A DNA stretch of 64,000 nucleotides from Candidatus Woesearchaeota archaeon (GTDB lineage Archaea > Nanobdellota > Nanobdellia > Woesearchaeales > 0-14-0-80-44-23), in contig JAVZCZ010000001.1 of NCBI GenBank assembly GCA_038874135.1, positions 845,957 to 909,956 of the forward strand, written 5' to 3'. The position numbers and the translations under genes were made by a program. The notes under the pieces are model-generated. The model was not told the DNA's origin and searched no databases. It was given only the letters and a program-made list of their open reading frames with translations. This document shows positions 22,408 through 23,016 of this stretch, in pieces (the first letter of the stretch is position 1; the number at the start of each line of letters is the position of its first letter).

Positions 22408-22800
22408 TTATATTTGTTTTGAGAGAATTACTACCTCTTTATCGTTCACCTTTGAAATCTGCACTAAGCCGCTTGACTTGAGCTCGTTCAGGTACCTGTA
22501 AAAGCTTGCTTTTGAGCAATACCTCAGCTGGTCTACTATTGCTTCCTTGACCTCTGGTATTGAGATAACTCTTGAGCTGCCTATGAAATCAAGGATTTTT
22601 CCTTTAATTATGTTTTTCCTATTTCTGTTCAGCTTTCTTAGAATTTCATCCTTTAAGGGCTCCTTCTTTTCTGAAAGCATCTCCCTAAGCTTTTTTATTT
22701 CTGATAGTAGAATCTTGTTCTGTTCTTCCAGGAGCTGTATCTTCCTACTGTTCTCTTCTAACTGAGCCTTTATGCTGTAATCCTCTGTTGACATCCCCAT
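22408..22800 (-). CDS. Coiled-coil plus winged-helix DNA-binding protein
   Basis: N-terminal heptads; SIPEVKEAIV...CSKASFYRYLNELKSSGLV wHTH; TATA box at 22824-22831. Confidence 0.75.
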   Translation of the reverse strand: MGMSTEDYSIKAQLEENSRKIQLLEEQNKILLSEIKKLREMLSEKKEPLKDEILRKLNRNRKNIIKGKILDFIGSSRVISIPEVKEAIVDQLRYCSKASFYRYLNELKSSGLVQISKVNDKEVVILSKQI

Positions 22801-22844
22801 CTTAACAGGCTAGCTTATCGCAGTATAAAAATCTTTCGCTCAAC

Positions 22845-22972
22845 TGAGACAAATCTGAGGCTGTCTCAATACTCAGCTGAGACACCCCCTTGTTTCCTGT
22901 GGACGACACCCCTTTATTTCCTGTGGAACATTTGAGACAAATTTGAGACATAATTGAGTCCACACTGAGACA
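22845..22972. repeat. TGAGACA iteron-like array in 11-bp register
   Basis: Copies start at 22845, 22856 (degenerate), 22878, 22933, 22944, 22955 (degenerate) and 22966; one inverted copy at 22862-22868. Confidence 0.75.
22881..22929 (-). promoter_or_regulatory. Two tandem ORB-like (origin recognition box) elements; candidate oriC
   Basis: Minus strand reads GTTCCACAGGAAATAAAGGGGTGTC and GTCCACAGGAAACAAGGGGGTGTC: TCCA..GGAAA dyad plus G-string, like archaeal ORBs. Confidence 0.65.
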
Positions 22973-23016
22973 GTATTTAAAAAGTGAAAACTTTAAAATG
23001 GGCTTACCAATTGGGT

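Follow-up and report, generated by a model that had tools for sequence, protein, structure and literature searches.

Does a cluster of ORB boxes and short phased repeats beside a winged helix-turn-helix (wHTH) gene mark a replication origin, and what might it do otherwise? The original prediction had read such a cluster as a hybrid origin in which the protein encoded alongside acts as co-initiator, origin regulator or partition factor. We analysed the locus within a window of 64,000 nucleotides (C1:845,957-909,956) from a genome (G000) that consists of a single 909,956-bp contig (C1) and is 99% complete; the source organism was treated as a member of Woesearchaeales. DNA of G000 occurs in hot-spring metagenome runs (three DNA runs, one study), and no RNA run was listed. 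Homologous loci came mostly from records titled Woesearchaeota or Nanoarchaeota/Nanobdellota. Many GenBank MAG records titled 'uncultured Methanosarcinales archaeon' (L022-L093) carry this locus, which is of Woesearchaeales type, and the tree places them among Woesearchaeota, so these labels are probably wrong.

ORB boxes, phased repeats and the adjacent gene

The minus strand of the window carries two head-to-tail boxes, present as the original prediction had written them (Table 1). Both match the consensus of the class, a TTCC(A)-n3-GAAA dyad followed by a G-string. They were scored with a weight matrix of 70 boxes from homologous loci, the window left out, which placed them above every other site in the genome; shuffled genomes gave 10.5 bits or less. 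Since the same matrix also gives up to 36 bits to the inverted cdc6-linked pairs of relatives, the window boxes are, judged by sequence, true ORBs, as had been proposed, and Orc1/Cdc6 is predicted to bind them.

The boxes are flanked on both sides by repeats and form with them what we call the cassette. Seven heptamers and one inverted copy had been listed, of which five exact copies of TGAGACA and the inverted copy were recovered, whereas TGAGGCT at 22856 and TGAGTCC at 22955 are degenerate copies, with one mismatch to the TGAGAC hexamer and two to the heptamer. All seven direct sites lie at multiples of 11 bp from 22845, so the claimed spacing holds. The number of heptamers in the window is at chance (10 observed, 9.0 expected); 6 of the 63 genome copies fall inside 128 bp, the sole place with at least two per 200 bp, and the cassette is the genome's only 200-bp stretch with at least three hexamers. 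On the promoter side, the last copy stops 13 bp short of the TATA box, and the first extends into the GTGTC tail of the ORB. The distal array sits on the ORB side that faces an AT-rich spacer in true origins. Rfam found no structured RNA in the array. A CRISPR-like or coding origin of the array was ruled out, its unit being 6-7 bp long, intergenic and phased, and an 83-codon ORF over it (22802-23053), not called in close homologues, was taken as spurious.

Table 1. Features of the cassette (window positions) and the three classes of ORB site in G000 (contig positions, C1)
Feature	Position	Strand	Description
Gene for 130-aa protein	22408-22800	-	Coiled-coil helix 5-43 and C-terminal winged helix-turn-helix, motif YCSKASFYRY
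Predicted BRE (GAAAGA) and TATA box (TTTTTATA)	22824-22837	-	31 bp before ATG
Promoter-side repeat array	22845-22884	-	GTCTCA hexamers at 22845 and 22878 (both exact TGAGACA); degenerate copy at 22856; inverted copy at 22862
ORB, promoter-proximal	22881-22904	-	TCCA-nnn-GAAA dyad and G-string; 35.4 bits, genome rank 2; predicted Orc1/Cdc6 site
ORB, distal	22905-22929	-	Direct repeat, 24 bp from the first ORB; 41.8 bits, genome rank 1
Distal repeat array	22933-22972	-	Hexamers at 22933, 22944 and 22966 (all exact TGAGACA); degenerate copy at 22955
cdc6-linked origin	C1:586.8-587.5 kb		ORB(-)/AT-rich/ORB(+) before cdc6-DP1-DP2
tbp-mcm-rpa operon boxes	C1:580,081-580,185		Two direct ORB-like boxes, 80 bp apart, upstream
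Cassette	C1:868.8 kb		Third ORB class in G000

The adjacent gene proved to be of the coiled-coil/wHTH type that had been suggested, its product folding in a predicted model (pLDDT 93) as a long helix followed by one winged helix. The helix motif YCSKAxFYRY is near-invariant across the family, which comprises 593 clusters at 50% identity and was found in 144 of 251 genomes of the order (a tally that includes the unpublished genomes G470, G410, G413, G366 and G481), with about four in ten searched genomes lacking it; outside the order, there were weak matches only, nearly all to the coiled coil. We weighed the named wHTH families Fur, MarR, PadR, Rpa2-WH and Cdc6-WH, yet Pfam matches stayed below cut-off and many winged-helix folds tied at Z 8.5-10.3. 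Searches with Pfam, PDB sequence, Foldseek, VIA-align and Atlas gave no named family, returning generic coiled-coil/winged-helix matches or unnamed archaeal clusters, and a profile comparison with Orc1 gave no match. The complex prediction for Orc1 with two copies of the protein scored 0.02, which counts neither for nor against an interaction. We infer that the 130-aa protein is the binder of the GTCTCA repeats.

Two further features lie nearby. A tRNA gene on the plus strand (window 23811-23926), read as tRNA-Trp(CCA), found by Rfam and missed by default ARAGORN, has an intron of about 44 nt with CUGA and GAUGA words, resembling a box C/D guide. On the other side, window 19673-22381 (+) holds two gene pairs, each made up of an HTH regulator gene and, after it, one of two paralogous genes for secreted proteins of about 238 aa without a Pfam match; this arrangement is syntenic in close relatives.

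Conservation of the cassette and a possible operator role

The ortholog check that had been suggested showed that the repeats do belong with the adjacent wHTH gene, as the pairing is kept over homologous loci. The array was present at 60 of 79 loci, upstream of the gene in 53 and downstream of the stop codon in 7, and absent from the other 19; an ORB was present at 52 of the 79. A strict ORB occurred in 44 of 78 homologous upstream regions (0.006 expected per region). The seven downstream cassettes, four with an ORB, fall in about four places on the tree, and in one clade repeats lie even inside the ORF. In 301 genomes, the strict pattern of hexamers plus ORB matched 16 times, each time at a gene of the wHTH family. 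Same-strand hexamer spacings peaked at 11, 22 and 33 bp (counts 75, 43 and 48), with the hexamers in register with the ORB at -11/-12, -22/-23, -44/-45, +20, +31, +42 and +53 from its TCCA. Where the listed cassettes had more than one box, the boxes were in direct orientation, and about a dozen cassettes had the ORB reversed. In the clade of L019:4780-5300, L058 and L079, linkers are longer, the repeat is a TCTCAG-type variant, the ORBs are degenerate and the repeats run on into the ORF.

In the window, gene and cassette together have the opposite orientation to their counterparts in close relatives (72-75% identity), forming a single inverted block in otherwise syntenic DNA. The gene is often accompanied by a DUF192 gene (at 38 loci) or a metallophosphoesterase (at 18); cdc6 was absent from the recurring neighbour clusters, and the distance from cassette to cdc6 ranged from 38 to 281 kb between genomes (281 kb in G000). 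A tRNA of some kind lay near the gene at 12 of 79 loci, several of them with tRNA-Trp; the mobile-element origin that this suggested was rejected, no integrase being recognised among the recurring neighbours.

Fourteen of the 19 array-less loci form one well-supported clade in which the recognition helix reads FYNY instead of FYRY and both array and ORB are missing. This fits direct recognition of the repeats by the protein, if weakly, but it is a single event. Elsewhere, the ORB was lost with the array kept (L028/L034/L039, L029, L059), and no array was found near three FYRY loci (L033/L035/L042). On this distribution, the function of the cassette is dispensable, because of the ORB losses, the array-less FYRY loci and the genomes that lack the family.

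The strict ORB pattern matched 98 of 121 genomes of the order (including the unpublished G356), and its reversed control matched none. Among 60 ORB sites sampled, 24 lay beside cdc6, 23 before tbp-mcm and 7 in a cassette, the remainder being 2 further origin-type pairs and 4 sites left unassigned. The cdc6-class ORBs are mostly inverted pairs around AT-rich DNA, and those of the tbp-mcm class are single or tandem. At least two hexamers accompanied 52/52 cassette ORBs versus 0/24 cdc6-linked and 0/23 tbp-mcm ORBs, while a 60-bp stretch of at least 90% A+T was found at 83% of cdc6 sites, 9% of tbp-mcm sites and 2% of cassettes. G000 has all three classes (Table 1).

The promoter of the family gene is laid out consistently: of 37 homologues with an upstream cassette, 34 have a TATA box 30-37 bp ahead of the start, and in 25 the last hexamer stops 5-14 bp short of the TATA box. 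This proximity makes autoregulation of the gene likely and also raises the alternative that the cassette is purely a transcriptional operator, the gene belonging to an Orc1 regulon, like tbp-mcm, and repressing or activating itself through the hexamers with no effect on initiation. Single or direct ORBs without an unwinding element do stand before tbp-mcm, in the sampled loci as in G000, and in Sulfolobus a paralogue of Orc1, Orc1-2, is known to regulate transcription (PMC6061795, PMC9738581). Against this reading, the cassette is kept 3' of its gene in the seven loci above, although such cassettes could serve the promoter of the next gene, and arrays flank the ORB on both sides, not just towards the promoter. 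Because the array is unique in G000, the protein has no wider regulon, so such a regulator would control itself alone, often together with the DUF192 gene. We consider the pure operator rather unlikely. With its 3' positions, reversed ORBs, arrays on both sides and no other array in the genome, the cassette seems to be more than a promoter, and its function seems to reside in the complex that would form at the site.

Origin function

The cassette is probably not a chromosome origin, because a canonical cdc6 origin sits at the skew switch and the cassette has no unwinding element, inverted pair or switch of its own. Its boxes are direct and form no inverted ORB pair, no orc1/cdc6 gene is adjacent, and no AT-rich unwinding element is present (A+T 49-71% versus 82-92% in the oriC core); the original prediction had rightly noted the direct boxes and the missing element as a caveat. 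GC skew at four-fold sites, fitted with two breakpoints, placed the breaks of G000 at 122 and 585 kb, the latter matching cdc6 at 587.7 kb, and no switch occurred at the cassette (869 kb), where the sign is the same on both sides. Five further genomes were followed in sampled 20-kb windows of possibly incomplete assemblies: in G346, G381 and G205 the switch falls at cdc6 instead of the cassette, the signal of G382 is noisy, and G347 has a change of sign in codon-corrected skew between 355 and 385 kb, with its cassette at 379.6 kb. Four of the six genomes, including G000, thus have no switch at the cassette, and the change in G347, of unclear polarity, could be explained by inversions. The hybrid origin was not supported: one of the refuting findings named in the original prediction applies, as a canonical cdc6-linked origin exists and explains the skew, with no switch at the cassette. 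The cassette also fails the three default criteria of Ori-Finder-Arch (10.64898/2026.08.15.744077), as far as these are applicable and with the BLAST criterion left out.

Among known origins, the closest class is the oriC1 type (Sulfolobus oriC1, Pyrococcus oriC), with ORB(-), an unwinding element and ORB(+) by orc1/cdc6. The cassette has the same class of ORB, with a TTCC..GAA core and G-string (PMC1904270), but its boxes are direct, it lacks the AT-rich element, cdc6 and the skew switch, and it adds a hexamer array that is not seen at the origins of the order. The minimal oriC1 of Sulfolobus includes the inverted ORB pair and the unwinding element, and loss of either inverted ORB abolishes the origin (PMC12141716). 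With Sulfolobus oriC3 and its whiP gene the cassette shares a winged-helix gene that lies next to its presumed repeats and away from cdc6; in one clade of cassettes, gene and repeats overlap. WhiP, however, has tandem winged-helix domains, and oriC3 is Orc1-independent in vivo (PMC3607249), whereas the cassette protein, judged by its predicted model, has a single winged helix plus a coiled coil, and ORBs occupy the centre of the site. The cassette is not a member of the canonical or the WhiP origin class.

A second, weak or dormant origin with the wHTH protein as a WhiP-like co-initiator would account for the perfect ORBs, whose G-strings are longer than those at the cdc6 origin of G000, and for the layout of gene and cognate repeats, which resembles oriC3/whiP down to the repeats inside the ORF in one clade; the sign change in G347 would suit it, and dormant origins leave no skew. 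The direct boxes, the near absence of very AT-rich stretches from cassettes, the skew of G000, G346, G381 and G205, the essential inverted ORBs of oriC1 and the single winged helix against two in WhiP all speak against it, and we regard such an origin as improbable.

The cdc6 origin of G000 (C1:586,800-587,730), beside the Orc1 gene at C1:587,732-588,949, has short G-strings (AAGG) and about 660 bp of very AT-rich DNA between its ORBs; owing to the short G-strings, these ORBs score far below the off-origin boxes. A second cdc6 gene, at C1:659.7 kb, encodes a shorter Cdc6 and has no adjacent strong ORB. The cdc6 origins of G000 and G346 have opposite GC-skew polarity, the leading strand being C-rich in the former and G-rich in the latter. 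In addition, C1:10,000-111,000 is a 100-kb block with unusually strong T/A skew at four-fold sites (0.32 versus 0.03 elsewhere).

A proposed off-origin site for the initiator

Off-origin initiator sites that regulate replication and do not start it are known from bacteria (E. coli datA/DARS, B. subtilis DnaA-box clusters, DnaA-regulated promoters). The cassette shares with them, at the sequence level, initiator boxes off the origin and neighbouring sites for a second protein, but its initiator would be archaeal Orc1, its partner is dedicated and encoded alongside instead of being IHF or Fis, and it has 1-3 boxes. No comparable off-origin initiator-control locus in archaea is described in the literature searched. 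Plasmid iteron and centromere arrays (RepA iterons, ParR-parC, TubR-tubC, omega heptads) also consist of helically phased short direct repeats by the gene of their binder, with likely autoregulation; the cassette differs from them in being chromosomal, order-wide and built on an Orc1 box, with no partner motor found.

A centromere-like or chromosome-organising site, at which the protein would coat the array as ParR, TubR and omega do and tether a motor or SMC while Orc1 licenses segregation, would suit the single array of phased short repeats in each genome, next to a gene for a small coiled-coil, predicted DNA-binding protein, the full-length SMC encoded in G000 (C1:336,915-340,367) and the precedent of DnaA binding inside the Caulobacter centromere, but it is very doubtful given that no ParA/SegA-type ATPase passed the cut-off in the 99%-complete G000, no motor gene was recognised among recurring neighbours and the position is untied to the origin (38-281 kb away). 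The partition role first proposed for the protein likewise has no ParA-type ATPase found in G000 to go with it; of the proposed functions, that of origin regulator survives.

The explanation that we favour, with its chances about evenly balanced, is that the cassette is a non-initiating docking and control site for Orc1/Cdc6, coated by the neighbouring protein, which would feed back on its own gene. The sequence shows canonical ORBs, hexamers in helical register with them, strict pairing with one gene family and a location away from oriC; binding by either protein is a prediction. In true origins of the order, each ORB turns its TTCCA side towards the AT-rich spacer, and in Sulfolobus MCM is recruited on this spacer-facing side (PMC12141716). 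In the cassette, the TTCCA side is occupied by hexamers from 11 bp on, and another hexamer often overlaps the G-string tail. The initiator Orc1 would bind the cassette ORBs, and the coiled-coil/wHTH protein would oligomerise on both sides of the ORB over the GTCTCA hexamers, whose 11-bp spacing puts them on one face of the DNA. With the unwinding-element and MCM-loading side of the ORB filled, bound Orc1 could not fire, or Orc1 would be excluded; joint binding and mutual exclusion of the two proteins are both possible. The cassette would then hold or sense the initiator, like bacterial datA or DnaA-box clusters. Where the array reaches the BRE, as in the window, the complex would also set the transcription of the gene, closing a feedback loop.

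Against a docking site, 1-3 boxes make a small sink, and a timing device might not tolerate distances to cdc6 that vary from 38 to 281 kb. Conserved ORBs outside an unwinding module are also represented by the Thermococcales dp1 cluster, 1.5 kb from oriC (PMC1904270), and by the tbp-mcm ORBs of Woesearchaeales, both of which differ from the cassette in having no flanking array and no cognate gene. We found no description of the cassette in literature on Woesearchaeota, DPANN or Nanobdellota origins or on GTCTCA, a search with many subscription papers outside it, and the literature search yielded nothing on replication control in DPANN archaea.

More tentatively, the cassette may represent a dedicated archaeal initiator-control module of Woesearchaeales, in which a small protein polymerises round an ORB off the origin, either to trap, inactivate or meter Orc1, as a datA-like site with its own anti-initiator, or to make a single ORB a conditional origin. 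Orc1 limitation and timing in archaea are poorly known, and this module, conserved through much of the order, could be rebuilt in vitro from two small proteins and 130 bp of DNA. The results also bear on origin finding, since ORB scans in the order can choose the wrong origin, the top-scoring boxes of G000 lying off oriC. Whereas oriC is practically the sole Orc1 site in Pyrococcus (PMC1904270), the cassette and the tbp-mcm boxes imply that Orc1 of Woesearchaeales would act at several fixed sites beyond the origin.
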